Assembly (NCBI GenBank): GCA_013289265.1
Contig: JABDAH010000002.1
Location: forward strand, 8,581 to 72,580
Direction: 5' to 3'
Source of the DNA: Alphaproteobacteria bacterium
Lineage (GTDB): Bacteria; Pseudomonadota; Alphaproteobacteria; UBA9219
Length of the DNA: 64,000 nt
Numbering within the stretch: the first letter of the stretch is position 1; every line of letters begins with the position of its first letter. Made by a program: the position numbers and the translations under genes. Shown in pieces: positions 252-13,108 of this stretch. The notes beneath the pieces are model-generated. The model saw only the letters and a program-made list of their open reading frames with translations. It ran no database searches and was not told where the DNA came from.

Positions 252-381
252 GAAACAAAAATAAAATCACTCTTGGATAATTGGGCCGAAATAAATCTGC
301 TAATTATCCGCAGTCATCGCGTGTCTCGATTAAAATTTTGTGGTGGTTTGCTTGTGTGCAACCCAAGCCATAGAGAGACAA

Positions 382-1668
382 ATGTCGCATTCACTCCATA
401 CAGCTAAAAAGGTGTACATGATGGGGGTTTCATCGCTGAAACCTAATCCATGCAACCCGCGCCTGCATTCCAAAAAGCAGATCAAACAAATCGCCAATAG
501 CATAAAGAGCTTTGGATTTAACGTCCCCGTCCTTGTTGATTGCACAGACCAACTAATTGCTGGGCATGGGCGTGTCGAAGCAGCAAAGCTTTTAGGAATG
601 ACAGAAATTCCGGTCATCCGCATCGAACACCTCACCGAAGCTCAGGCCAAGGCTTTTGCAATTGCCGACAATCGTTTGACTGAAAATTCTGTCTGGGACG
701 ACTGGTTGCTGGCACAACAACTTAAAGAGCTTTCGGAAATTAATCTTTCATTCACCCTTGATGCTACTGGCTTTACAATGGATGAGATCGATCTACGAAT
801 CGAAAGCCTGTCTGGGCCAATAGAAAAATGTGATCCTGCAGACCAAGTTACGGATATCGGCGGTCCTGCAGTTAGCCAATTCGGTGATCTATGGCAGATG
901 GGAGAGCACCGCCTGTTATGTGGTGATGCGACGAATGGGGCAGATGTGGGTCGCGTTATGAATAGCAAATGTTCAGCCATGGCATTTACCGATCCGCCCT
1001 ACAATGTTGACTATGGCAATAGCGACAAAAATAAGATGCGTAACGTTCATCGCCCGATCCTCAACGACAATATCGGAGATGATTTTGACACTTTCCTGCT
1101 ATCGGCTTGCACCAATATTCTTTCAGTAACAGATGGTGCCATTTACATCTGCATGTCATCGAGCGCACTCCATACCTTACAGGGGGCTTTTAGCAAAGCA
1201 GGCGGTCATTGGTCGACCTTTATAATCTGGGCAAAGAACACATTTACTCTCGGTCGTGCCGATTATCAGCGTCAATATGAGCCCATACTTTATGGCTGGC
1301 GCGAGGGGAATGACCGTTACTGGTGTGGTGATCGCAGTCAGGGAGATGTCTGGCTAATTGATAAGCCGGCAAAAAATGACCTCCACCCAACCATGAAGCC
1401 TATCGAACTTGTAATGCGCGCTCTGCGTAATAGCAGTGAGCGCGGCGACCTCGTGCTGGATAGCTTTATGGGTAGCGGCAGCACTTTAATTGCAGCTGAA
1501 CGTACAGGTCGTATTTGTTATGGCCTCGAGCTTGATCCTCTTTATGTCGACGTCGCCGTCCGCCGTTGGCAGGGGCACACAGGCGAAAAAGCAATCCATA
1601 CGGGCACCGGCAAATGTTTCGACGACATAGCTAAAGAAATGGAGGTACGCCATGCCGGAGAGCTGTGA
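382..1668 (+). CDS. ParB-like nuclease domain fused to a DNA methyltransferase (N6-adenine or N4-cytosine, PF01555-like)
   Basis: N-terminal ParB-like region (SLKPNPCNPRLHSKKQIKQIANSIKSFGFNVPVLVD..GHGRVEAAKLLG). Catalytic DPPY motif (FTDPPYNVDYG). C-terminal SAM-binding motif (DSFMGSGST). ATG at 382 is preferred over the GTG at 340 used by the track. Confidence 0.85.
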   Translation: MSHSLHTAKKVYMMGVSSLKPNPCNPRLHSKKQIKQIANSIKSFGFNVPVLVDCTDQLIAGHGRVEAAKLLGMTEIPVIRIEHLTEAQAKAFAIADNRLTENSVWDDWLLAQQLKELSEINLSFTLDATGFTMDEIDLRIESLSGPIEKCDPADQVTDIGGPAVSQFGDLWQMGEHRLLCGDATNGADVGRVMNSKCSAMAFTDPPYNVDYGNSDKNKMRNVHRPILNDNIGDDFDTFLLSACTNILSVTDGAIYICMSSSALHTLQGAFSKAGGHWSTFIIWAKNTFTLGRADYQRQYEPILYGWREGNDRYWCGDRSQGDVWLIDKPAKNDLHPTMKPIELVMRALRNSSERGDLVLDSFMGSGSTLIAAERTGRICYGLELDPLYVDVAVRRWQGHTGEKAIHTGTGKCFDDIAKEMEVRHAGEL

Positions 1669-4718: not shown

Positions 4719-5153
4719 ATGGATCTTGATGAGCGGATTGCCGAACTTCAGACATTACGGCGGGAGAAACTGCTGCAGGAATGGGAAAAATTATGGAAGC
4801 GCACACCACCCAAATATATCAGCCGCGTGCTCCTGATCCGCAGCATCGCCTATAAACTACAGGAACAAATATATGGTGGCCTATCACCCACCTGCCAAAA
4901 GGCATTGAATGCACTTATAAAATCTGCACAGAAAACCAGTAATAAGACGACCAAACCCAAAAACAATATAAAGTCCGGCACCCGACTGATCCGCGAATGG
5001 AAAGGCGAGCTGCATGAAGTGATAGTCATTGCTGATGGCTATACCCACAAAGGCAAGTTCTATAAAAGCCTGTCACAGATCGCACGCAATATCACGGGTT
5101 CGCGCTGGAACGGCCCGGCCTTTTTTGGCCTCCGCGCAGGTAAAAAACCATGA
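4719..5153 (+). CDS. DUF2924 domain protein (usual partner of large serine recombinases)
   Basis: C-terminal signature (LIREWKGELHEVIVIADGYTHKGKFYKSLSQIARNITGSRWNGPAFFGL). Its stop overlaps the recombinase start (ATGA at 5150-5153). Confidence 0.7.
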   Translation: MDLDERIAELQTLRREKLLQEWEKLWKRTPPKYISRVLLIRSIAYKLQEQIYGGLSPTCQKALNALIKSAQKTSNKTTKPKNNIKSGTRLIREWKGELHEVIVIADGYTHKGKFYKSLSQIARNITGSRWNGPAFFGLRAGKKP

Positions 5154-6787
5154 AAAATTATCTCAATTGCGTCATCTATACTCGCAAATCTTCCGAAGAA
5201 GGACTGGAGCAAGAATTTAACTCACTCGATGCTCAGCGCGAAGCTTGCGAGGCTTATATCGCCAGCCAGAAGCACGAAGGGTGGAAAGCCATAGCTACAA
5301 AATATGATGATGGTGGTTTCTCCGGCGGCAATATGGATCGCCCTGCCCTCCAACGCCTGCTTACCGATATAGAAGCTGAGAAAATAAACACTGTGGTTTG
5401 CTATAAGGTTGATCGCCTTAGCCGGTCGCTGGCTGACTTTGTGAAGATGGTTGAACGGTTTGATAAAAAGAGCGTTTCATTTGTCTCGGTCACGCAGCAA
5501 TTTAACACAACAACCTCGATGGGACGTCTTACTCTGAATGTATTGTTGTCATTCGCCCAATTTGAACGCGAAGTCACCAGCGAGCGCATACGCGACAAAA
5601 TCTCTGCATCCAAGAAAAAGGGTATGTGGATGGGCGGAGTAACGCCACTAGGCTATGATGTAATCGGCAAAAAACTGATCGTGAATAAGGAAGAAGCCAA
5701 GACCGCAAAGTTTCTATTTGAGACCTATCTCAGGCTTGGCAATGTCAGGTTACTCAAGGAGGAACTGGACCGGCTTAACATCCGCACCAAGACTCGTAGC
5801 AACCAGAAAGGCAAATATGCCGGAGGCGCTAAATTCTCACGCGGTGCGCTTTACAAGATACTGATTAGTCCCGTCTATAAGGGCATGGTCTCCCATAAGG
5901 GCAAGATTTATCCCGGCGAACATGAACCTGTCATCTCTCCTGTGCTTTGGCAACAGGTTCAGGACAAACTCCAAGTCAATATGAAAGGTCACAAATCCGG
6001 TCATGGCACGAAGAACCCATGCCTACTAACAGGGCTCATATATGACAGCACCGGCAATCGGTTCAGCCCAACGCGCGCCAAGAGAAATGGCAAGCATTAT
6101 CGCTATTATATCAGTCAAGCGCTCCTCCAATACCGATCCGACCAAAAACCACAGGTCGGGCGCATCCCAGCAGATGAGATTGAGAAACTTGTTCAAAATG
6201 AAATCATTGGGTTACTGACTGATAACATGAAAATTACAGAGGCTCTCGGTATTGATTCAACAGACATAAGAGCATCCGAAACAGCTTCAGAGAAAGCAAA
6301 ACAGCTTGGCAATAAGCTCAAAAAATCTACTGAGCAATATGGTGACTTGCTCCGGAGCTTATTGGTCCGGGTCACAGTTGCTGCAGACGAAATAACTATT
6401 TTGCTCAATCGTACTGCCGTGATCGCTTACACCTCTAGCGATCACGGGTTCTTTAACATTGGTACACATGATGACAATCCACATAACCCTATTACCCTAA
6501 CCCTAAATGCGCGCCTACTGCGATGTGGAGTAGAAAAACGAATTATCGTCCCTGATGATGGCCAAGCCAGTGCTGCAGCGAGCAGAGATGGCGAGTCACT
6601 TAAATCGGCCATAGCCAAAGGGCATCTATGGCGAGACCAGTTTTTTAATGGAAGATTCCCAACTCTTGAAGCAATAGCAAAAGATAATGGGTTGTCTGTG
6701 AGTTATATAAGTAAAATGATTGATCTATCGTTTCTGCCACCTCAAAGAGTCACTGAGATCTTGTTTGATTTTTCGGAATACATCTAG
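5150..6787 (+). CDS. Large serine recombinase (resolvase/invertase N-terminal domain plus recombinase domain)
   Basis: N-terminal catalytic-serine region (CVIYTRKSSEEGLEQEFNSLDAQREACEAYI), VVCYKVDRLSRSL, and a recombinase-domain region (GGVTPLGYD..). 545 aa. Confidence 0.9.
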   Translation: MKNYLNCVIYTRKSSEEGLEQEFNSLDAQREACEAYIASQKHEGWKAIATKYDDGGFSGGNMDRPALQRLLTDIEAEKINTVVCYKVDRLSRSLADFVKMVERFDKKSVSFVSVTQQFNTTTSMGRLTLNVLLSFAQFEREVTSERIRDKISASKKKGMWMGGVTPLGYDVIGKKLIVNKEEAKTAKFLFETYLRLGNVRLLKEELDRLNIRTKTRSNQKGKYAGGAKFSRGALYKILISPVYKGMVSHKGKIYPGEHEPVISPVLWQQVQDKLQVNMKGHKSGHGTKNPCLLTGLIYDSTGNRFSPTRAKRNGKHYRYYISQALLQYRSDQKPQVGRIPADEIEKLVQNEIIGLLTDNMKITEALGIDSTDIRASETASEKAKQLGNKLKKSTEQYGDLLRSLLVRVTVAADEITILLNRTAVIAYTSSDHGFFNIGTHDDNPHNPITLTLNARLLRCGVEKRIIVPDDGQASAAASRDGESLKSAIAKGHLWRDQFFNGRFPTLEAIAKDNGLSVSYISKMIDLSFLPPQRVTEILFDFSEYI

Positions 6788-6788
6788 A

Positions 6789-8030
6789 TCAGTCTTTGAA
6801 AGGATTGCCGCTGTCAACCGTCGGGCTTGGAAACTTCGCTGCAGGGTTTCTGATCATGGATACTAAGGCGCTAACGTTTGATATTTCCGGGCCGGGTTTT
6901 ATAAAGATCTCCGGCGAGGGCAAAACACTAAATGCAACCGCATTCACATGGGGGCGTCTTGGGGGTCCTTCAAACAGATTTTCCGCAATCTTCTGTGTGC
7001 CAACGCCGGGCATAGTATGGAGTTCTTTCAGGGCATCTTCAGGCATGTCAGCAATCTGAATTGCGACTAGTGATGGTCTTTGGTGGCTAAATTGCCTGCC
7101 AGCAGTTGCTGCTTTCTCAGAAATAAATTCTAGAACGGTATCAGGCGTCGTGCTTTCAAACACAGTGCAGATAATATTCCTCGATACTTTCTGCGCGTGC
7201 AACAGGACATGCTTGCCTAATCCTCCGACCTTTTGGCCGACAAATTTTTTAACATCTACTTCTTTAGTAATTTCTGGCGGCAATACGAATTCAGGCTTTA
7301 CCTCTAGTGTTAACTCGAAATCAGCGCGAGCAATAAACGGCTCACCATGCAAAGCTTTGGGAATAGCAGCATACAAGCTGCTTAATGCATCACCCGAAAG
7401 GTGGCTCAACCGATTTTTGATTTTGATGGTAAGAATGCGTGAGGAAAGATCATGAAGCCCTGTTACGATGGACCTGACATGCTCCCCTACGGTGCAAACG
7501 CCTTTTTGATCTATCAAACGTCCTGCATCCGCCGAGATCGTCTTACATTCGACCTCAAGCTCTTCTCCGTCCTTTGAAACAATAAATTCAAAATTGCCCT
7601 GGTTTTCCAGATCGACAAAGTTGACATCGCAGCCCTTACCAAGGAAATGTCCGGCGGCAGTCATTTCAAATTCCAATGGCCGCATACCGTAGGCTTGCCC
7701 GAATGTGCCATCTAAGGCTTCAGTCAATTTTTTCTTTCCGGCCGCTGATAACCCTTGATAAATGCGCACCAACGTAACGATGAAATTTATAGGCCCGCTA
7801 AACGTTGAGTGGAGTGGTATTGGCTGGCCCGGCACAAATTCACGCATTAATCGCACGAGAGCATATTCTAGCTTGAATGTGTTCCTGTAATACTCTGCCA
7901 ATAATGGGTGATCTTTTCCTGCCGCTTCGAACCCATTAACCTTGCGTTCGAGCCTGTCGGTCAAAAAGTATTTGAACCACACTATCGCCAAGGCAACTTC
8001 ACCGGCATCGACATTGCGTGAATATTTCAC
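6789..8030 (-). CDS. Hypothetical 413-aa protein with a possible PD-(D/E)xK nuclease motif
   Basis: GTG start lies 4 nt after the stop of the upstream gene, so the two form an operon. Motif pattern E120..D140..E161-x-K163 (GCDVNFVDLENQGNFEFIVSKDGEELEVECKT, nt ~7540-7615). No family recognised by eye. Confidence 0.45.
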   Translation of the reverse strand: MKYSRNVDAGEVALAIVWFKYFLTDRLERKVNGFEAAGKDHPLLAEYYRNTFKLEYALVRLMREFVPGQPIPLHSTFSGPINFIVTLVRIYQGLSAAGKKKLTEALDGTFGQAYGMRPLEFEMTAAGHFLGKGCDVNFVDLENQGNFEFIVSKDGEELEVECKTISADAGRLIDQKGVCTVGEHVRSIVTGLHDLSSRILTIKIKNRLSHLSGDALSSLYAAIPKALHGEPFIARADFELTLEVKPEFVLPPEITKEVDVKKFVGQKVGGLGKHVLLHAQKVSRNIICTVFESTTPDTVLEFISEKAATAGRQFSHQRPSLVAIQIADMPEDALKELHTMPGVGTQKIAENLFEGPPRRPHVNAVAFSVLPSPEIFIKPGPEISNVSALVSMIRNPAAKFPSPTVDSGNPFKD

Positions 8031-8034
8031 GATA

Positions 8035-8784
8035 TCACGGCTTTGCAGTACGAGCGTCGACGATACCTAGAAGGTGTGTGGCCAAGATGATTTGTTCCTT
8101 TGCCTCGCGCGGATCGGTTAAATTCACGGTACGATGAGAGTGTGGATTTTTATAGGAACCTATGGCACCGGCAAAAAGCTGCATCAATGCATCTTGCTCT
8201 GATACAGGCACTGATTTATCTGCCAACGGTCCGGAACTTGGCCGAAAAGCATCTCTCATTAAATTAACGCCAAGATCCGTATCTTTAAAGCCACCAGCCT
8301 TTCTCACTGCGATTTCTACCGCTTTAAAAGCAGCGAACACAGCTTCATCCAAATCATTGCCGACAAAGGCTTTCCAAACTTTGTCGGCGATGGATGGGTG
8401 AATCATGGATTTAGGAAAATCCGTCAATTCACGTAGTCGAGCAAAATCTTGCTGGCCCGCTGCTTCCTCACCAAGTTTAGTCAACATCTTCCAACCGTTC
8501 CGACCATTTATGTCTGCAGCTGGAACGATGTATTGGTGATGACTTAGCCATGCCCACACTTCGGCCAAATGCCTACTGATTTGATCCCTGTAATTCATCG
8601 GGTACGTTGACTTTACGGGTACGATAGGCTCATGCCCAAGCGCAACATTATTGACTGCATCTGGTATAAACATATTGTTTTGTATCATATTTTTCGCGAA
8701 CCGCAGCATGATGGGCGCGATGTCTGCTGGATCCGCCGTCAGAAAATCGTTGGCGTTAGGATAGAATGTAAGAAGCGTGTCCAT
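8035..8784 (-). CDS. TIGR02391 / Hypoth_Ymh-like protein with an unknown N-terminal domain
   Basis: The C-terminal half (DEAVFAAFKAVEIAVRKAGG..LMQLFAGAIGSYKNPHSHR..ILATHLLGIVD) matches my recollection of the TIGR02391/PF09509 family. 249 aa. Confidence 0.6.
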   Translation of the reverse strand: MDTLLTFYPNANDFLTADPADIAPIMLRFAKNMIQNNMFIPDAVNNVALGHEPIVPVKSTYPMNYRDQISRHLAEVWAWLSHHQYIVPAADINGRNGWKMLTKLGEEAAGQQDFARLRELTDFPKSMIHPSIADKVWKAFVGNDLDEAVFAAFKAVEIAVRKAGGFKDTDLGVNLMRDAFRPSSGPLADKSVPVSEQDALMQLFAGAIGSYKNPHSHRTVNLTDPREAKEQIILATHLLGIVDARTAKP

Positions 8785-8958
8785 TTTAGCCCTTTAATTG
8801 TATCAAGGGCCACTCTTCCAGCCCGATTAATCGACCATACCGTAGCAAAAAACACTTTATTTGTCAGGGGTAACATTGAGGGGCCGCAACCCAAGGGCGG
8901 CCTTCAAGTACAATTCTCTAGTTTAGTTTGTGGGAACATGGCCAACGCTTGCTGTTGT

Positions 8959-9191
8959 CCATTCTCTCCAGTCGAGTTTGGCAAATCCTTAGTCCTCAAA
9001 CTCAACTACGCTTTTGCAAACAGAGAATTTCGTCGTCATCAATGTTGATTTTGGGCACATGGAAATAATCGGAGAAAATGGTTTGGTGTGAATGTGCCTA
9101 AATCCCCCGCAATGAGGGCATAATGGCAGCCCATTCTCTGAAAGCCATTAAGTCCGAAGACTTAATGGCGGGGAGAATGAGATTCGAACTC
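8959..9191. repeat. Copy A of a 233-bp imperfect direct repeat (tRNA-Ser 3' fragment plus about 207 bp of tRNA-downstream flank)
   Basis: Collinear with 12809-13041 at a constant offset of 3850 bp. Long identical blocks include aaatcccccgcaatgagggcata, ttctccagtcgagtttgg and gagattcgaactc. Similarity stops abruptly at 9191/13041. Confidence 0.85.
9166..9191 (-). pseudogene. Displaced 3' fragment of a tRNA-Ser gene (att-like core)
   Basis: tggcggggagaatgagattcgaactc matches the 3' 26 nt of tRNA-Ser at 13016-13041 at 22 of 26 positions (T-loop, acceptor 3' strand, CCA). No 5' part of a tRNA follows. Confidence 0.75.
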
Positions 9192-9427
9192 TTAATAGTT
9201 TGACTTCACAACCCTTTGAAATGTTGTGTCAATTCTTGTCATTTTATTGCGAGAGAATAGGATAATTGATTGATAAATAACTATCATTTATCCGACAAAC
9301 TTTCTCGTGCGACGCCAACAACTGTACGATTCACCTCACACTACCAATTTTGGCCAGATCAAAGGGTTAATAATTGACGCATATTACCTCGGGGCAAGTT
9401 CACAGAACCGATAGCCATAATTTTTGT

Positions 9428-9655
9428 TTATTTTTGCCCTATTGTCATGAGTTGCCCCACCCCAGAGCTATTCTTTCTCTGGGGGCAATCTGGTTCCAGG
9501 TAGTTTTTGATGCCAACCGAGCCTGATTCATCAGTTCCCGGCTCCGACAGCCCTTTATCACCTCGGGTCCGTTTACGTTTCCTCGATTTTAACACCCGCG
9601 CCACAATCTCTTGTGCAGCTTTAACAGCGCGCATGAGTATCAGGGCATCGGACAC
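9428..9655 (-). CDS. Small basic hypothetical protein (75 aa)
   Basis: GTG start lies 5 nt after AGGAGG. Lys/Arg-rich centre (KSRKRKRTRGDKG). No family recognised. Confidence 0.4.
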   Translation of the reverse strand: MSDALILMRAVKAAQEIVARVLKSRKRKRTRGDKGLSEPGTDESGSVGIKNYLEPDCPQRKNSSGVGQLMTIGQK

Positions 9656-9965
9656 GAATTCCTCCTGAGTTGGTTATTACAGGAAAAAGACGAAAAATTG
9701 AGACCGGAAATACGAAACTTAAGAAATTAGGCTTAAAGAGCACGTTCTCTGCGAAGCTAACACTCCCCGAATTGATTATATAAGATAGTAAGGGTGTTTA
9801 GATTACGAAACTTGGCAAGAAATTAAGCTATTGATGCACACCTTAATTGATTATCGACAAAATCTTGCTTCATGTTTTTTATTGTTGCTTTAATTCTTCT
9901 CTGGAAAGAATCTAAATTTCTTTATTTTCCAAACGCCAATCCTGCGAAACAGGATAAAAGGCGCA

Positions 9966-11378
9966 TTAGGAGACCAAAGTTGAGATGGATGAGTTCGTCA
10001 TACAGTGCACGGCGCCAGCGGCAGAACTAAAAGATCCTTCGGGTAATCCGATATCTTCCGGCGCCACAACCTGCTTACCGATTTTGCCGAAGATGCTTCG
10101 AACCTCATTATTGGCAAATGGTGAAATGAGAACATTTCCGAAACGGGTAAGATTGAGTGGGTAAGCAAGTGCGGCTTCGCTGTCTTTAAGTGCGCTCACA
10201 TTTTGGGTGCCATAGACTCTTTTTATTATTTCAAGAGTTAATGTGGCGGTTGCCGAAGGATAGATTGCCACAGCTCCATCCACAACCGTCATCATCGTAT
10301 CGAGGTCATAAAATTGTATGCCGGTTGGTCGTTCTTCAATAATCTCGCCACCTTCTCGAACACGGACCTCTCCGACAACACTAATATTACCCGGGGCAAT
10401 CAATGGAACAGGTATGACTATTGTTTTAGGGGTTGGCCGAGGCATGGCGGCTTCGAGACTAGCTAATCTTAGCAAATCACGAGGCTCCGTAATAATACCA
10501 CCCACAAACAAAACATCTTTTGTTTCGTCATAGATCATATTGCCGCCACTAATACGACCATTTATTTCTTGAAAATCGTAACCATCTTGAGCCAATCGGT
10601 TTTTAAAATTTTTTCCTAAAGCAGCACCAACCTCTGCACTGTCTCTAAATGGATCTGTAGGAACATCAAAGCGCCCCATATAAATCGTATTGTCGATGAT
10701 CAGACCGCAATCGCGCGTAAATTTCAATTTTGCATAGGGAGTATGAATGCCATTGCTATTAGCTAAAGCGAGAACATCAGCATCCGGTTCGATGACCTTG
10801 ACTTCAGCGCCGAGATGCCCGAGCAAATTTTTCAGCGCGAGCCAACCCGTCGTTTCACGAATTTGTCGTTTCCATGATGCCGCCGGTTTTTCCTCTCCGG
10901 GAAATGCCCCGAAAAATGGGTTTTGAGTTCGGGCGATAAAAAAATTTTCAGGCAGTCCCATATAGAAAGTGGCCGACGCGTCTGACTGTCGGGGGACACG
11001 TGTAAAATCAGGTTTTTTTATCGATCTTTGCAATTCGATATTCAAAGCAGCAGCATAACCTTTGAACATGCCATCACGCGCTTCCGCTATACGGTCGGGA
11101 TATTTGCTTTGCATGATCTCCTCGAGAGCGGGAAGGATGACGGCTTGAACGTCCTTATGCAATGCGGTAGGCGAATGACTTAAAACGGTGTCGTGAACCT
11201 GAGATATGCAAAAGACTGCAATGTCCTCAACAATGTGACAGTCACGAAGCGCGATTTCTCGCATACGAGACGTGTAATTCACGAGCCGCGCTACAAAAGC
11301 TGTGGTGTCGAGAGAGAAGCTATTTCCATTTTCTTCAAACGGAAGAGCAAAATTGGGTAATAAGCTATCCGAGTTCAT
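9966..11378 (-). CDS. Hypothetical 470-aa protein, possibly a guanidino-group-modifying (pentein / arginine-deiminase-like) fold
   Basis: Long uninterrupted ORF. The C-terminal ..SSAAGAVHCMTNSS resembles the catalytic small-residue-H-C-M-T motif found close to the C-terminus of arginine deiminase-type enzymes. An internal GGNMIYDETKDVLFVGG resembles a GGD-type strand. Confidence 0.4.
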   Translation of the reverse strand: MNSDSLLPNFALPFEENGNSFSLDTTAFVARLVNYTSRMREIALRDCHIVEDIAVFCISQVHDTVLSHSPTALHKDVQAVILPALEEIMQSKYPDRIAEARDGMFKGYAAALNIELQRSIKKPDFTRVPRQSDASATFYMGLPENFFIARTQNPFFGAFPGEEKPAASWKRQIRETTGWLALKNLLGHLGAEVKVIEPDADVLALANSNGIHTPYAKLKFTRDCGLIIDNTIYMGRFDVPTDPFRDSAEVGAALGKNFKNRLAQDGYDFQEINGRISGGNMIYDETKDVLFVGGIITEPRDLLRLASLEAAMPRPTPKTIVIPVPLIAPGNISVVGEVRVREGGEIIEERPTGIQFYDLDTMMTVVDGAVAIYPSATATLTLEIIKRVYGTQNVSALKDSEAALAYPLNLTRFGNVLISPFANNEVRSIFGKIGKQVVAPEDIGLPEGSFSSAAGAVHCMTNSSISTLVS

Positions 11379-11649
11379 TGTAATATTTGTCTAATAATGT
11401 TTGTGATTAAATCAAATCCAGCCGCAGATTAGCATATTTTCTTGCAAGTAAATCAGAAAAATAGAAAAAACTGGTAACGAGACAGGAATCGAACCCGCGC
11501 CTCCTACATACCTGATTAGTCTGCCGTACAGCACAAATCAGCGTACTGAAGGTTGGGTTTGCAAATCCCCAAATCTTGAAGTCTGGAACAGTTATGGTCG
11601 GTCAAGCCTTATGAAACTGGGCAATGGATGATCAATGTTAAACTGGCAT

Positions 11650-12294
11650 TTATAATCCAGCTACTTTTATATATTGGCTAGCTCTTTCGGCGGCTCGCCA
11701 TTGAAGAAGACTGCCGCCGGGAGCGCTTTGTGCAACTTGCAGGGCTGAGCCCAAAGCAAATTGAGGAATACACCCATAAAATCTGTCCTCCAGTTTAGCC
11801 CAGAGAGTGACCGCACGTTCTTCTTCTGGACTGCCGGGCTTCAACGATACACTGACATAGGCCAGCATATTACGCATATTTGTTTCTTCCGAAGGCGAAT
11901 ATGTCGGCGGTAATTTTAAGAATGCTGCTTCAAATTTCAGCAGTATATGTTCAGAAATTTTCCACAGAGCTTCTTGGGCTTCAGGCACATGATCTGCATA
12001 TTTTTTTGCAGCCAGAATTACAAATGTTTCCCCAATTAGGGGGATGGAATCGTCCAAGAATTTTTCCACTAAATCGTTGACAACCTTTTTGCGGCAAACT
12101 TCTTCCGTCGCTTCAGGTTGGGCACTACGTGCGGCGGCCAGACGTTTTTCCCAATCTTCCCGGTAAGCAGGCGAAGGCGTTTCGACAAGAAAGGCAGGCG
12201 CCGCAACTGGTGCGGTGTCTTTAGAAGTAGCTTTTGAAGGCCTAAAGCGAGCGAAAAGGGTTTTGCCTCTACGAAATAAATTATTCATATTCAA
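11650..12294 (-). CDS. Hypothetical 214-aa protein
   Basis: ORF with ATG start, same strand as 9966-11378, no recognised motif. Confidence 0.5.
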   Translation of the reverse strand: MNMNNLFRRGKTLFARFRPSKATSKDTAPVAAPAFLVETPSPAYREDWEKRLAAARSAQPEATEEVCRKKVVNDLVEKFLDDSIPLIGETFVILAAKKYADHVPEAQEALWKISEHILLKFEAAFLKLPPTYSPSEETNMRNMLAYVSVSLKPGSPEEERAVTLWAKLEDRFYGCIPQFALGSALQVAQSAPGGSLLQWRAAERASQYIKVAGL

Positions 12295-12808
12295 TTTCTC
12301 TTATGAAAATTTGCACTGTAAATGATCCACCATCTAATACTCGAGTTTTGATATCTTGGCAAAACCTATCAATGCCCTAAAAATTAAGCATAGTTTTTGT
12401 GGGTATTACGTGGTTAACGAACATTCACTAAGAAACCTGAAACCACACCAATCCTCCTTCTTTAACAGCATACTGCATGCCTTTTACATTAGTTTCCTTT
12501 GTCAACAGTTGCGCGGCTTCTTGACGACAGCGAAAAGACTGTTGAACGAACTTATAGAAAAACACGCACAGGACTATTTGCGAAGGGCAGTTAGCACGCT
12601 GAGTTTTTCCCAAACTGTACCACCCAAGAGCATTCTATTACAGCTGTAACGGAATGTTCTTAAGCCTGTTCCGGTTTTTTAGCTACCTAGTTGAAAAAAA
12701 TGGTGGCGAAAAGGGCGGACTCTCGATCCCAACCTTGGTAAGATCATAACCTTAAGGATAATTCTCTGAGTTGAGTTTGAGAAATTTGTGACATAAATCG
12801 GCTGAGTG

Positions 12809-13041
12809 TCATTTTCTCCAGTCGAGTTTGGCGAGTCTCGGTCGTCAAACTCAACTGCTGAATTTGCATTCGGAGAATTTTGACGTCATCAACGCTAGTT
12901 TTGGATGGACAGGAACAATCAGAGAAAATGGCTTGATGTGAATGCTCCCAAATCCCCCGCAATGAGGGCATAGTGGCGGCACATTCTCTGAAAGCCTGAA
13001 AGGCTTCAGACTTAATGGCGGAGGAGATGAGATTCGAACTC
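12809..13041. repeat. Copy B of the 233-bp imperfect direct repeat (overlaps the 3' end of the intact tRNA-Ser)
   Basis: See copy A. It contains a hairpin (gaagcctttcaggcttc on the minus strand) just downstream of the tRNA. That hairpin is degraded in copy A. Confidence 0.85.
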
Positions 13042-13108
13042 ACGATACGGGTTTACCCCGTATAACGGTTTAGCAAACCGCCGCCTTCAGCCACTCGGCC
13101 ACCCCTCC
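13016..13108 (-). tRNA. tRNA-Ser (anticodon GCU), CCA encoded
   Basis: Reverse complement reads GGAGGGGTGGCCGAGTGGCTGAAGGCGGCGGTTTGCTAAACCGTTATACGGGGTAAACCCGTATCGTGAGTTCGAATCTCATCTCCTCCGCCA. It has a long variable arm, a GTTCGAATC T-loop and GCT in the anticodon loop. Confidence 0.95.

Follow-up and report, generated by a model that had tools for sequence, protein, structure and literature searches.

We describe here two adjacent minus-strand genes that lie at one end of an integrated, phage-like element in a 64,000-nucleotide (nt) stretch of the alphaproteobacterial contig JABDAH010000002.1 (hereafter, the window) and that encode a 249-amino-acid (aa) protein of the Ymh family and a 413-aa protein of a family without a name. 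Altogether, our results give about an even chance to a model whereby this locus is an accessory ('moron'-type) operon that stacks two self-sufficient predicted nuclease effectors as defence cargo at the attachment-site (att)-proximal end of a serine-recombinase element. In our model, the Ymh protein would be a stand-alone HEPN protein and predicted metal-independent RNase whose N-terminal domain probably controls its activation, while the 413-aa protein would be a predicted Mg2+-dependent DNase with the catalytic set E122, D140, D/E148, E161 and K163, and with domains flanking the core that may provide recognition of a target or trigger. Each effector would be able to act alone. In the clade to which the window belongs, both genes would have been joined into one translationally coupled unit that later moved between mobile elements, giving a two-layer defence against phages and mobile elements in which direct attack on invading DNA is backed up by RNA cleavage of the abortive-infection type; such a layered defence would benefit host and element alike. 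Neither enzymatic activity is more than inferred here, and the same holds for any cross-talk between the two proteins and for the defence role, which we deduce from context.

The assignment of the 249-aa protein to the Ymh family (PF09509/TIGR02391) is clear from its sequence. The C-terminal half, in which an earlier note on this DNA had recognized the family, exceeds both curated cut-offs: residues 128-239 match PF09509 with an E-value (E) of 1.5e-23 and 83.4 bits (cut-off 25), and TIGR02391 is matched with E 5.4e-16 and 58.8 bits (cut-off 39.45). The same note took the family to be of no known function, which is outdated, as Ymh has been placed in the HEPN superfamily of predicted RNases since 2013 (Anantharaman et al. 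2013; PMC3710099). Ymh proteins occur as solo forms, as fusions to paraMORC, AbiJ-NTD1 and AbiTii and in restriction-modification (R-M) operons, and a PrrC/RloC-like role has been proposed for some of them (PMC3710099). We found 2437 homologues of the 249-aa protein, most of them full-length, and the best 120 beyond the close clade are 48-60% identical to it. Its N-terminal domain (residues 1-127) matches no Pfam model, the AbiJ-NTD families included, and no ATPase domain was found in the protein in the Pfam scan. Faint PADLOC matches to PD-Lambda-3_B (E 0.007, 13.6 bits, HEPN region only) and to Aga_HEPN (E 0.012) are read as a shared HEPN signal.

Columns that are invariant in the HEPN domain include R161, N213-P214-H215 and H217-R218. 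The subfamily motif, Y-K-N-P-x-S-H-R, keeps the histidine of the HEPN active site while a lysine replaces the canonical arginine and an invariant arginine follows directly after the histidine. This variant is too well conserved to be a product of decay: the lysine is present in 117 of the 120 top homologues, in all 75 motif-bearing open reading frames (ORFs) of the metagenome loci and in three plasmid copies (Methylococcus, Skermanella and Streptomyces), and the arginine is kept in distant Ymh proteins (two in locus L005 and one in L120). The K-type subfamily, which we also see in loci L119, L121 and L122, spans Proteobacteria to Streptomyces. The earlier note had cast the pair as a nuclease effector with a sensor or regulator. 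The first half of that proposal finds support, an Mrr-type nuclease core being probable in the 413-aa protein, while the second half needs revision: Ymh is a HEPN-family predicted RNase, and it is likelier to be a second effector than a sensor or regulator.

Profile similarity places the 413-aa protein in a large family without a name. Word-based searching returned just six homologues, at 39-91% identity, and a third search of this kind, using the family alignment, found nothing further, whereas an exhaustive profile search returned 970 cluster representatives at E up to 1e-3 (50% identity clusters), 144 of them at E up to 1e-30. Members are mostly 400-440 aa long and are matched over most of their length; the copies on plasmids of Cupriavidus, Paraburkholderia, Pseudomonas aeruginosa and Komagataeibacter all carry the label 'hypothetical protein'. 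The window protein itself marginally matches one uncharacterised PHROG, and it matches no PDB sequence.

Conservation within this family points to a restriction-endonuclease-like core. In an alignment of 109 relatives at 19-28% identity to the window protein, three residues never vary (E122, G170 and Q313), and E55, F83, D140, D148, E159, E161, C162, K163, D168, R171, L208, S293, D297 and P319 are conserved in at least 90%. The earlier note had proposed a PD-(D/E)xK motif composed of E120, D140 and E161-x-K163, from which D140, E161 and K163 are retained, being also invariant within the close clade. E120 is not conserved, and the invariant helix glutamate is E122 instead; to the set we add position 148 on the second strand, glutamate in the window protein and aspartate in at least 90% of the relatives, which is probably the canonical D of the motif. 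The family core reads PLAFEM..A.HLM..GFDV.F.DLE..GGFDFLA..DG.E.EVECK..S.D.GRKIH. In an AlphaFold2 (AF2) model of the 413-aa protein (predicted local distance difference test score (pLDDT) 76.9, predicted template modelling score 0.72, pLDDT 61-89 across the core stretch), this region is predicted as helix 117-131, strands 135-141, 146-153 and 156-166, helix 175-190 and strand 198-204, and this alpha-beta-beta-beta-alpha-beta pattern is restriction-endonuclease-like. Mrr_cat (PF04471) is matched by 4 of the 109 family members (best E 3e-4), and the family consensus reaches it at 21.9 bits over its full length and at 25.2 bits for the core (E 1.9e-5; profile positions 5-64), the cut-off being 21. 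PADLOC also gave scattered weak matches to the ZorD Mrr-like nuclease and to REase_II. Because of the motif, the predicted secondary-structure pattern and the threshold-level Mrr_cat match of the family consensus, we consider it likely, though not proven, that the 413-aa protein has an Mrr-like PD-(D/E)xK core. Mrr_N, a winged helix, is not matched by the protein, whose N-terminus is modelled as an all-helical region of ~115 aa. The C-terminal alpha/beta domain (residues ~235-413, nt 6789-7330) has conserved residues of its own, S293, D297, Q313 and P319, and an RPHVN motif in the close clade, and it matches no known family; it may serve in target recognition or in regulation.

The Ymh-413 pairing is conserved only in a narrow clade, and within that clade the junction of the two genes is tight. 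As the earlier note stated, the two ORFs of the window are 4 nt apart, and the junction, read on the minus strand, is ccgTGAtatcGTGaaa, a spacing that would allow translational coupling. Homologues align with the 413-aa protein from its residue 1 onwards, which speaks for the GTG start. In loci L001-4 the genes overlap by 4 nt (ATGA) beside a tyrosine integrase (identity to the window proteins 70% for the 413-aa protein and 80% for Ymh), and in L009, L010 and L032 a Mrr_cat gene is followed by Ymh, a 4-nt gap (TGAcgtcATG in L009) and the 413-like gene, beside a different tyrosine integrase (81% and 85%). The 4-nt gap or overlap is kept on three backbones, namely that of the serine recombinase (the window and L028/L029), that of the tyrosine integrase (L001-4) and that of Mrr_cat with a tyrosine integrase (L009/L010), and the identity ranks are concordant for both genes, L009 standing above L001. 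A more distant arrangement is found in L005, where an R-type Ymh of the same architecture adjoins a 413-aa relative and is divergently transcribed (50% for the 413-aa protein, 33% for Ymh). Synonymous sites are saturated between versions (proportion of synonymous differences 0.76-0.85, and 0.76-0.81 for the window genes against those of L001 and L009), while the proportion of nonsynonymous differences is 0.10-0.19 among the three tightly coupled versions. These values indicate that both ORFs are selected genes and that the coupled unit is old and moved between backbones.

They also bear on two other explanations. The first is that the genes are chance neighbours hitch-hiking as a block, with the 413-aa protein working for the element itself, in the recombination, replication or packaging of its DNA. 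It fits the heterogeneous neighbours of two independent families and the position of the 413-aa gene, which abuts a recombinase here and integrases or transposases elsewhere; we nevertheless regard it as decidedly unlikely, as the junction has been kept through synonymous saturation and across three recombinase types, the 413-aa family is tied to no single recombinase, terminase or replication gene, and HEPN partners recur in independent lineages. The second is that at least one of the two proteins has lost catalysis and serves as a scaffold, or is a remnant in decay, so that the locus has no nuclease-based function. The K-for-R exchange in the HEPN motif, the lack of a structural match for the 413-aa model and the possible remnant state of the element, with just a terminase and a methylase to the left, would all fit, but strong purifying selection acts on both genes, the putative catalytic residues are invariant in a family that has diverged to ~20% identity, and conservation of the K-variant motif extends from Proteobacteria to Streptomyces, making this explanation very improbable.

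Outside the clade, Ymh and 413-aa families are both normally solo genes. The check on co-occurrence that the earlier note had called for therefore has a divided outcome: the pair recurs in other mobile elements of the close clade but is absent from 79 of 80 sampled Ymh-249 metagenome loci, the remaining one being L032, which was already known, and from all 11 genome loci of the wider 413-aa family, none of which has a Ymh gene within 6 kb. These 11 loci, from Alpha- and Gammaproteobacteria and Bacteroidota, are all that a genome scan with a 12-sequence alignment returned, and their neighbours are varied (ClpB, an integrase, a peptidase, a carboxyltransferase, an AAA_13 ATPase, transposases and housekeeping genes). 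No pairing is seen for Ymh-249 genes at 52-60% identity, which stand alone, or for the plasmid and contig copies examined individually. A diverged 413-like partner hidden beside solo Ymh genes was rejected, as a hidden Markov model of the family detected no such gene in L022-L027 and, among the 80 metagenome loci, just the one in L032. Likewise rejected was the idea that the 413-aa family is generally HEPN-paired, there being no Ymh in the 11 genome loci and no recurring HEPN family among 72 neighbours. Among relatives of the 413-aa gene at 39-40% identity, those of L006-8 have an unrelated 219-aa protein as their coupled partner on a mobilisable element, and that of L113 lacks any partner upstream; the next relatives are solo (L114). 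In the former (L006:6394-8291, L007:7336-9239 and L008:2-1893), the 39%-identical homologue overlaps the 219-aa gene by 1 nt downstream of an HNH_5 protein, on an element with relaxase, MobC/NikA and AlpA; the 219-aa protein has no Pfam or PADLOC match. A string common to this protein and Ymh ('FYP..DLL') had raised the possibility that it shares the Ymh N-terminal domain, an idea rejected on an hhalign probability of 1.5%.

Because both genes are normally solo, an obligate two-component system, in which Ymh would sense or regulate and activate the 413-aa nuclease as the only effector and neither protein would work alone, is quite unlikely. Such a system would explain the tight 4-nt coupling retained on three backbones and the HEPN-type proteins of three lineages that adjoin close 413-aa relatives, some HEPN-like domains elsewhere are non-catalytic, and the motif here has K for R. 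Against it stand, besides the overwhelmingly solo occurrence of both families, the strongly conserved K-N-P-x-S-H-R, which resembles a maintained active site, the divergent transcription of the L005 genes and the coupling of the L006-8 relative to an unrelated 219-aa protein. The solo copies likewise speak against a toxin-antitoxin (TA)-like addiction module that would stabilise the element, most probably with the HEPN protein as toxin, its partner as neutraliser and defence as a secondary effect: present in hundreds of loci, they suggest that neither protein is an unchecked toxin needing the other. HEPN proteins are often toxins, HEPN-MNT and RnlA being examples, small size, coupling and a place beside recombinases where the element ends would suit an addiction module, and TA genes lie near family members on plasmids. 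Even so, scans with Pfam, NCBIfam and PADLOC revealed no MNT or other recognised antitoxin domain, and a 413-aa protein with a conserved nuclease-like core would be an odd antitoxin, and we judge the TA reading to be as improbable as the obligate pair. Two effectors, each sufficient on its own, remain the preferred model.

Support for a role of the pair in defence comes from the settings of its relatives. Ymh genes have as neighbours resolvases, HNH proteins, Type I R-M, an SLFN-like helicase, SLOG, RelA/SpoT, a nucleoside deoxyribosyltransferase and transposases, and one solo Ymh abuts a Type I R-M system. Ymh-249 genes also repeatedly abut genes of site-specific recombinases (L119:6-1705, L024:5703-6747 and L122:3989-5438), and one of them, on a Methylococcus plasmid, overlaps a tyrosine recombinase gene by 4 nt, which suggests a preference for the integration-module end of mobile elements. 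On the side of the 413-aa family, a same-strand string in L112 (2196-6254) starts with a DUF7380 plus DUF4209/EMARD_N protein that matches the PADLOC candidate PDC-S39 (E 1.6e-54), continues with a DUF2971 protein weakly matching PDC-S31 and ends with a 417-aa family member; it may represent a three-gene defence candidate. DUF4209 has been classed as another HEPN family (PMC3710099), while DUF2971 is an ADP-ribosyltransferase-like domain (PMC12522546) and the sole component of the validated lactococcal abortive-infection system Aristaios (PMC11381338). The island in L005 (7142-13009), on an integrative element with Prim-Pol/AAA_25, combines the R-type Ymh gene divergent from a 414-aa homologue with a 366-aa PDC-M68A/Shedu-like nuclease (E 4.7e-23), an NYN protein, a second Ymh of 214 aa and then a DUF2971 protein matching PDC-S31 (E 4.5e-45). 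HEPN proteins of three lineages, the K-type Ymh, the R-type Ymh (L005) and the DUF4209 type (L112), are thus found beside near 413-aa relatives. This association with defence is guilt by association and not proof.

Comparison with known systems places the pair outside any named defence family, as the earlier note had it: no PADLOC system was matched, and the pair is not PD-lambda-3, HEPN-MNT or PrrC/RloC. Among Ymh proteins, the 249-aa protein conforms to the solo form with its own N-terminal domain on mobile elements, sometimes near restriction-type genes, and differs in that its subfamily carries K-N-P-x-S-H-R and not Rx4-6H. With Mrr-type (Type IV) endonucleases the 413-aa core would share the helix glutamate, strand aspartates and the ExK strand, whereas its core is central, with the helical N-terminus of ~115 aa and a C-terminal alpha/beta domain of ~180 aa around it and no Mrr_N. 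The PD-lambda-3 system was reportedly introduced by Vassallo et al. in 2022. It is an abortive-infection system with a PD-(D/E)xK protein (PMC13190303, PMC10952713), and it resembles the pair as a small gene set with nuclease components and in the faint Ymh match to PD-Lambda-3_B, which amounts to just 13.6 bits; none of its components is matched by the 413-aa protein or its 109 relatives. The HEPN-MNT (type VII) TA systems differ in that no nucleotidyltransferase domain is present in the 413-aa partner or its neighbours. PrrC with EcoprrI, RloC and paraMORC-Ymh fusions in R-M operons are precedents in which a HEPN RNase backs up a restriction system (PMC3710099). The window pair is similar in having a HEPN gene directly beside a restriction-endonuclease-like gene, to which L009 adds a genuine Mrr_cat gene upstream. 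It differs in that its HEPN protein has no fused ABC or GHKL ATPase, the pair has no methyltransferase or specificity subunit, the nearest methyltransferase (a ParB-methylase) lies 5 kb off in a phage-like module, and each gene mostly occurs alone. That the Ymh and 413-aa proteins stand in a PrrC-like guard relationship, for which their adjacency is the sole argument, is unlikely. PDC-S39 (DUF7380-DUF4209 HEPN) and PDC-S31 (DUF2971 ADP-ribosyltransferase-like; compare Aristaios) form the string with the 417-aa relative in L112, PDC-S31 occurs in the L005 island as well, and the difference here is that both are absent from the window and that the 413-aa family is in no PADLOC model.

A bolder extension of the preferred model, which we put forward tentatively and think somewhat unlikely, is that the ~420-aa family as a whole is a new defence nuclease, widespread and acting alone, in which two flanking domains surround a divergent Mrr-like core. 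In its window branch, repeated capture by HEPN RNases would have involved three or more lineages (the K-type Ymh, the R-type Ymh and the DUF4209 type with a DUF2971 ADP-ribosyltransferase), yielding a modular DNase with RNase back-up that is absent from defence catalogues, and the K-N-P-x-S-H-R Ymh would have stayed active as a HEPN variant whose arginine has shifted position.

Several results weigh against the two-effector defence model. For the nuclease part, the window 413-aa protein has no match in Pfam (E up to 0.1), NCBIfam or PADLOC. In the structural checks that the earlier note had suggested, the AF2 model has the expected alpha-beta-beta-beta-alpha-beta pattern, but Foldseek of the full-length model did not confirm a nuclease fold: the best matches were at E 0.2 in the PDB and 0.06 in BFVD, with PD-(D/E)xK names only among the non-significant ones. 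Modelling of the core alone (residues 100-240, five sequences) gave a pLDDT of 48 and was unusable, the profile of the 109 relatives found only spurious DARPin matches among PDB sequences, and an hhalign comparison of the family with one Mrr_cat protein, that of L009, was not significant (probability 0.4%) and aligned just the ...ECK strand. For the RNase part, the K-for-R change makes the activity of Ymh less certain, and no paper mentioning TIGR02391 was found in a full-text literature search. For the role as mobile defence cargo, many wider-family 413 copies sit among housekeeping genes, and since the 413-aa gene is absent from 50,697 phage genome records, it is the window element by itself that gives rise to the label of prophage cargo. 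Finally, for an operon with signals of its own, the only sigma-70-like match near the pair on its strand is that at 9092-9065, ~280 nt upstream, and no terminator-like site was found at the convergent gene ends; neither promoter nor terminator matches exceeded the number expected from shuffled sequence.

The layout of the locus (Table 1) agrees with what the earlier note had reported about the surroundings of the pair. The pair converges on the serine recombinase, the two coding regions ending at 6787 and 6789, and with a single base between them there is therefore no room for an intergenic terminator. The recombinase has CcrB- and XisF-like NCBIfam similarities below the equivalog cut-offs, and its arrangement with the DUF2924 gene is repeated in L028 and L029, two further samples in which the arrangement of pair and recombinase is identical. 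The pair also has the integration module on one side and an att-like tRNA fragment on the other, because the nearer copy of a real direct repeat of ~230 nt contains the 3' end of tRNA-Ser; the two copies are 79-94% identical by repeat search and 81% by column identity in a pairwise alignment, and the farther one overlaps the 3' end of tRNA-Ser(GCT). The repeat is unusually long, with ~205 nt beyond the tRNA fragment duplicated at ~80% identity, which suggests that the incoming element brought its own diverged tRNA 3' region, as opposed to a simple short att duplication.

Table 1 Features of the Ymh-413 locus and its surroundings in the window
Feature	Position (nt)	Strand	Basis and remarks
ParB_N fused to N6/N4 DNA methyltransferase	340-1668	+	Left edge of element; followed by DUF5681 gene and large terminase
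DUF2924 gene, integration module	4719-5153	+	PF11149 E 4.9e-47; overlaps recombinase start
Large serine recombinase of integrated element	5150-6787	+	PF00239 E 5e-40; PF07508 E 5.9e-11
Convergent gene ends	6785-6791		Recombinase stop 6785-6787 (+); 413-aa gene stop 6789-6791 (-); one base between
413-aa gene, unnamed family, GTG start	6789-8030	-	ORF list; N-terminal helical region, central Mrr-like PD-(D/E)xK core and C-terminal alpha/beta domain (all predicted)
Predicted nuclease core, residues 117-204	7419-7682	-	Helix E122; strand D135/D140/E142; strand E148; strand E159-x-E161-C162-K163; then S166, D168, G170, R171
Gene junction	8028-8037	-	Ymh TGA stop 8035-8037, 4 nt (tatc), GTG start of 413-aa gene 8028-8030
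249-aa Ymh-type HEPN gene	8035-8784	-	ORF list; PF09509/TIGR02391 matches
HEPN (Ymh) domain, residues 128-239	8068-8403	-	Pfam and NCBIfam envelopes
Variant HEPN active-site motif K212-N-P-H-S-H217-R218	8131-8151	-	Lys in place of Arg of Rx4-6H
Upstream intergenic region, expected promoter location for pair	8785-8959	-	No consensus site
att-like repeat, last ~29 nt of tRNA-Ser and ~205 nt of downstream flank	8960-9191	-	Repeat families D1-D3; 176 nt upstream of Ymh start codon
tRNA-Ser(GCT) (13016-13108) and partner repeat copy (12810-13041)	12810-13108	-	ARAGORN and repeat search

The integrated element is phage-like and extends past the left end of the window; to the left of the recombinase module are a ParB-N6/N4 methylase, a DUF5681 gene, a large terminase and an HTH gene, and the element may be a remnant, only terminase and methylase being seen there. 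The ParB_N-methyltransferase is a typical phage-encoded orphan methylase and the sole methyltransferase near the nuclease pair. GC content is 41-48% across the first 13 kb, as expected for acquired DNA; elsewhere in the window it is mostly 50-58%, although some 1-kb bins are lower. Between the repeat copies (9192-12809) lies a second small low-GC block with a 470-aa gene (9966-11378, minus strand), whose product has weak C-terminal similarity to dimethylargininase/arginine dihydrolase (NCBIfam E 2.5e-5, far under the cut-off) and no Pfam match, and a 214-aa gene (11650-12294, minus strand) whose product gave no matches. This layout looks like tandem islands at one tRNA.

Nuclease cargo beside integrases is common, and the find is no surprise in kind; its main value lies in a sizeable unannotated nuclease-like family and a clean two-gene cassette. 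If our model is true, a family of ~970 clusters that currently goes by 'hypothetical protein' and is covered by no Pfam, NCBIfam or PADLOC model would be assigned a role, that of an Mrr-like nuclease borne by mobile elements, and the K-variant Ymh subfamily, itself large, would offer a single-gene HEPN candidate for defence or abortive infection that can be tested. The clade-restricted operon would show two autonomous effectors welded into one transferable unit and would bear on how defence islands are assembled, as well as on the old idea of HEPN RNases backing up DNA-targeting immunity.

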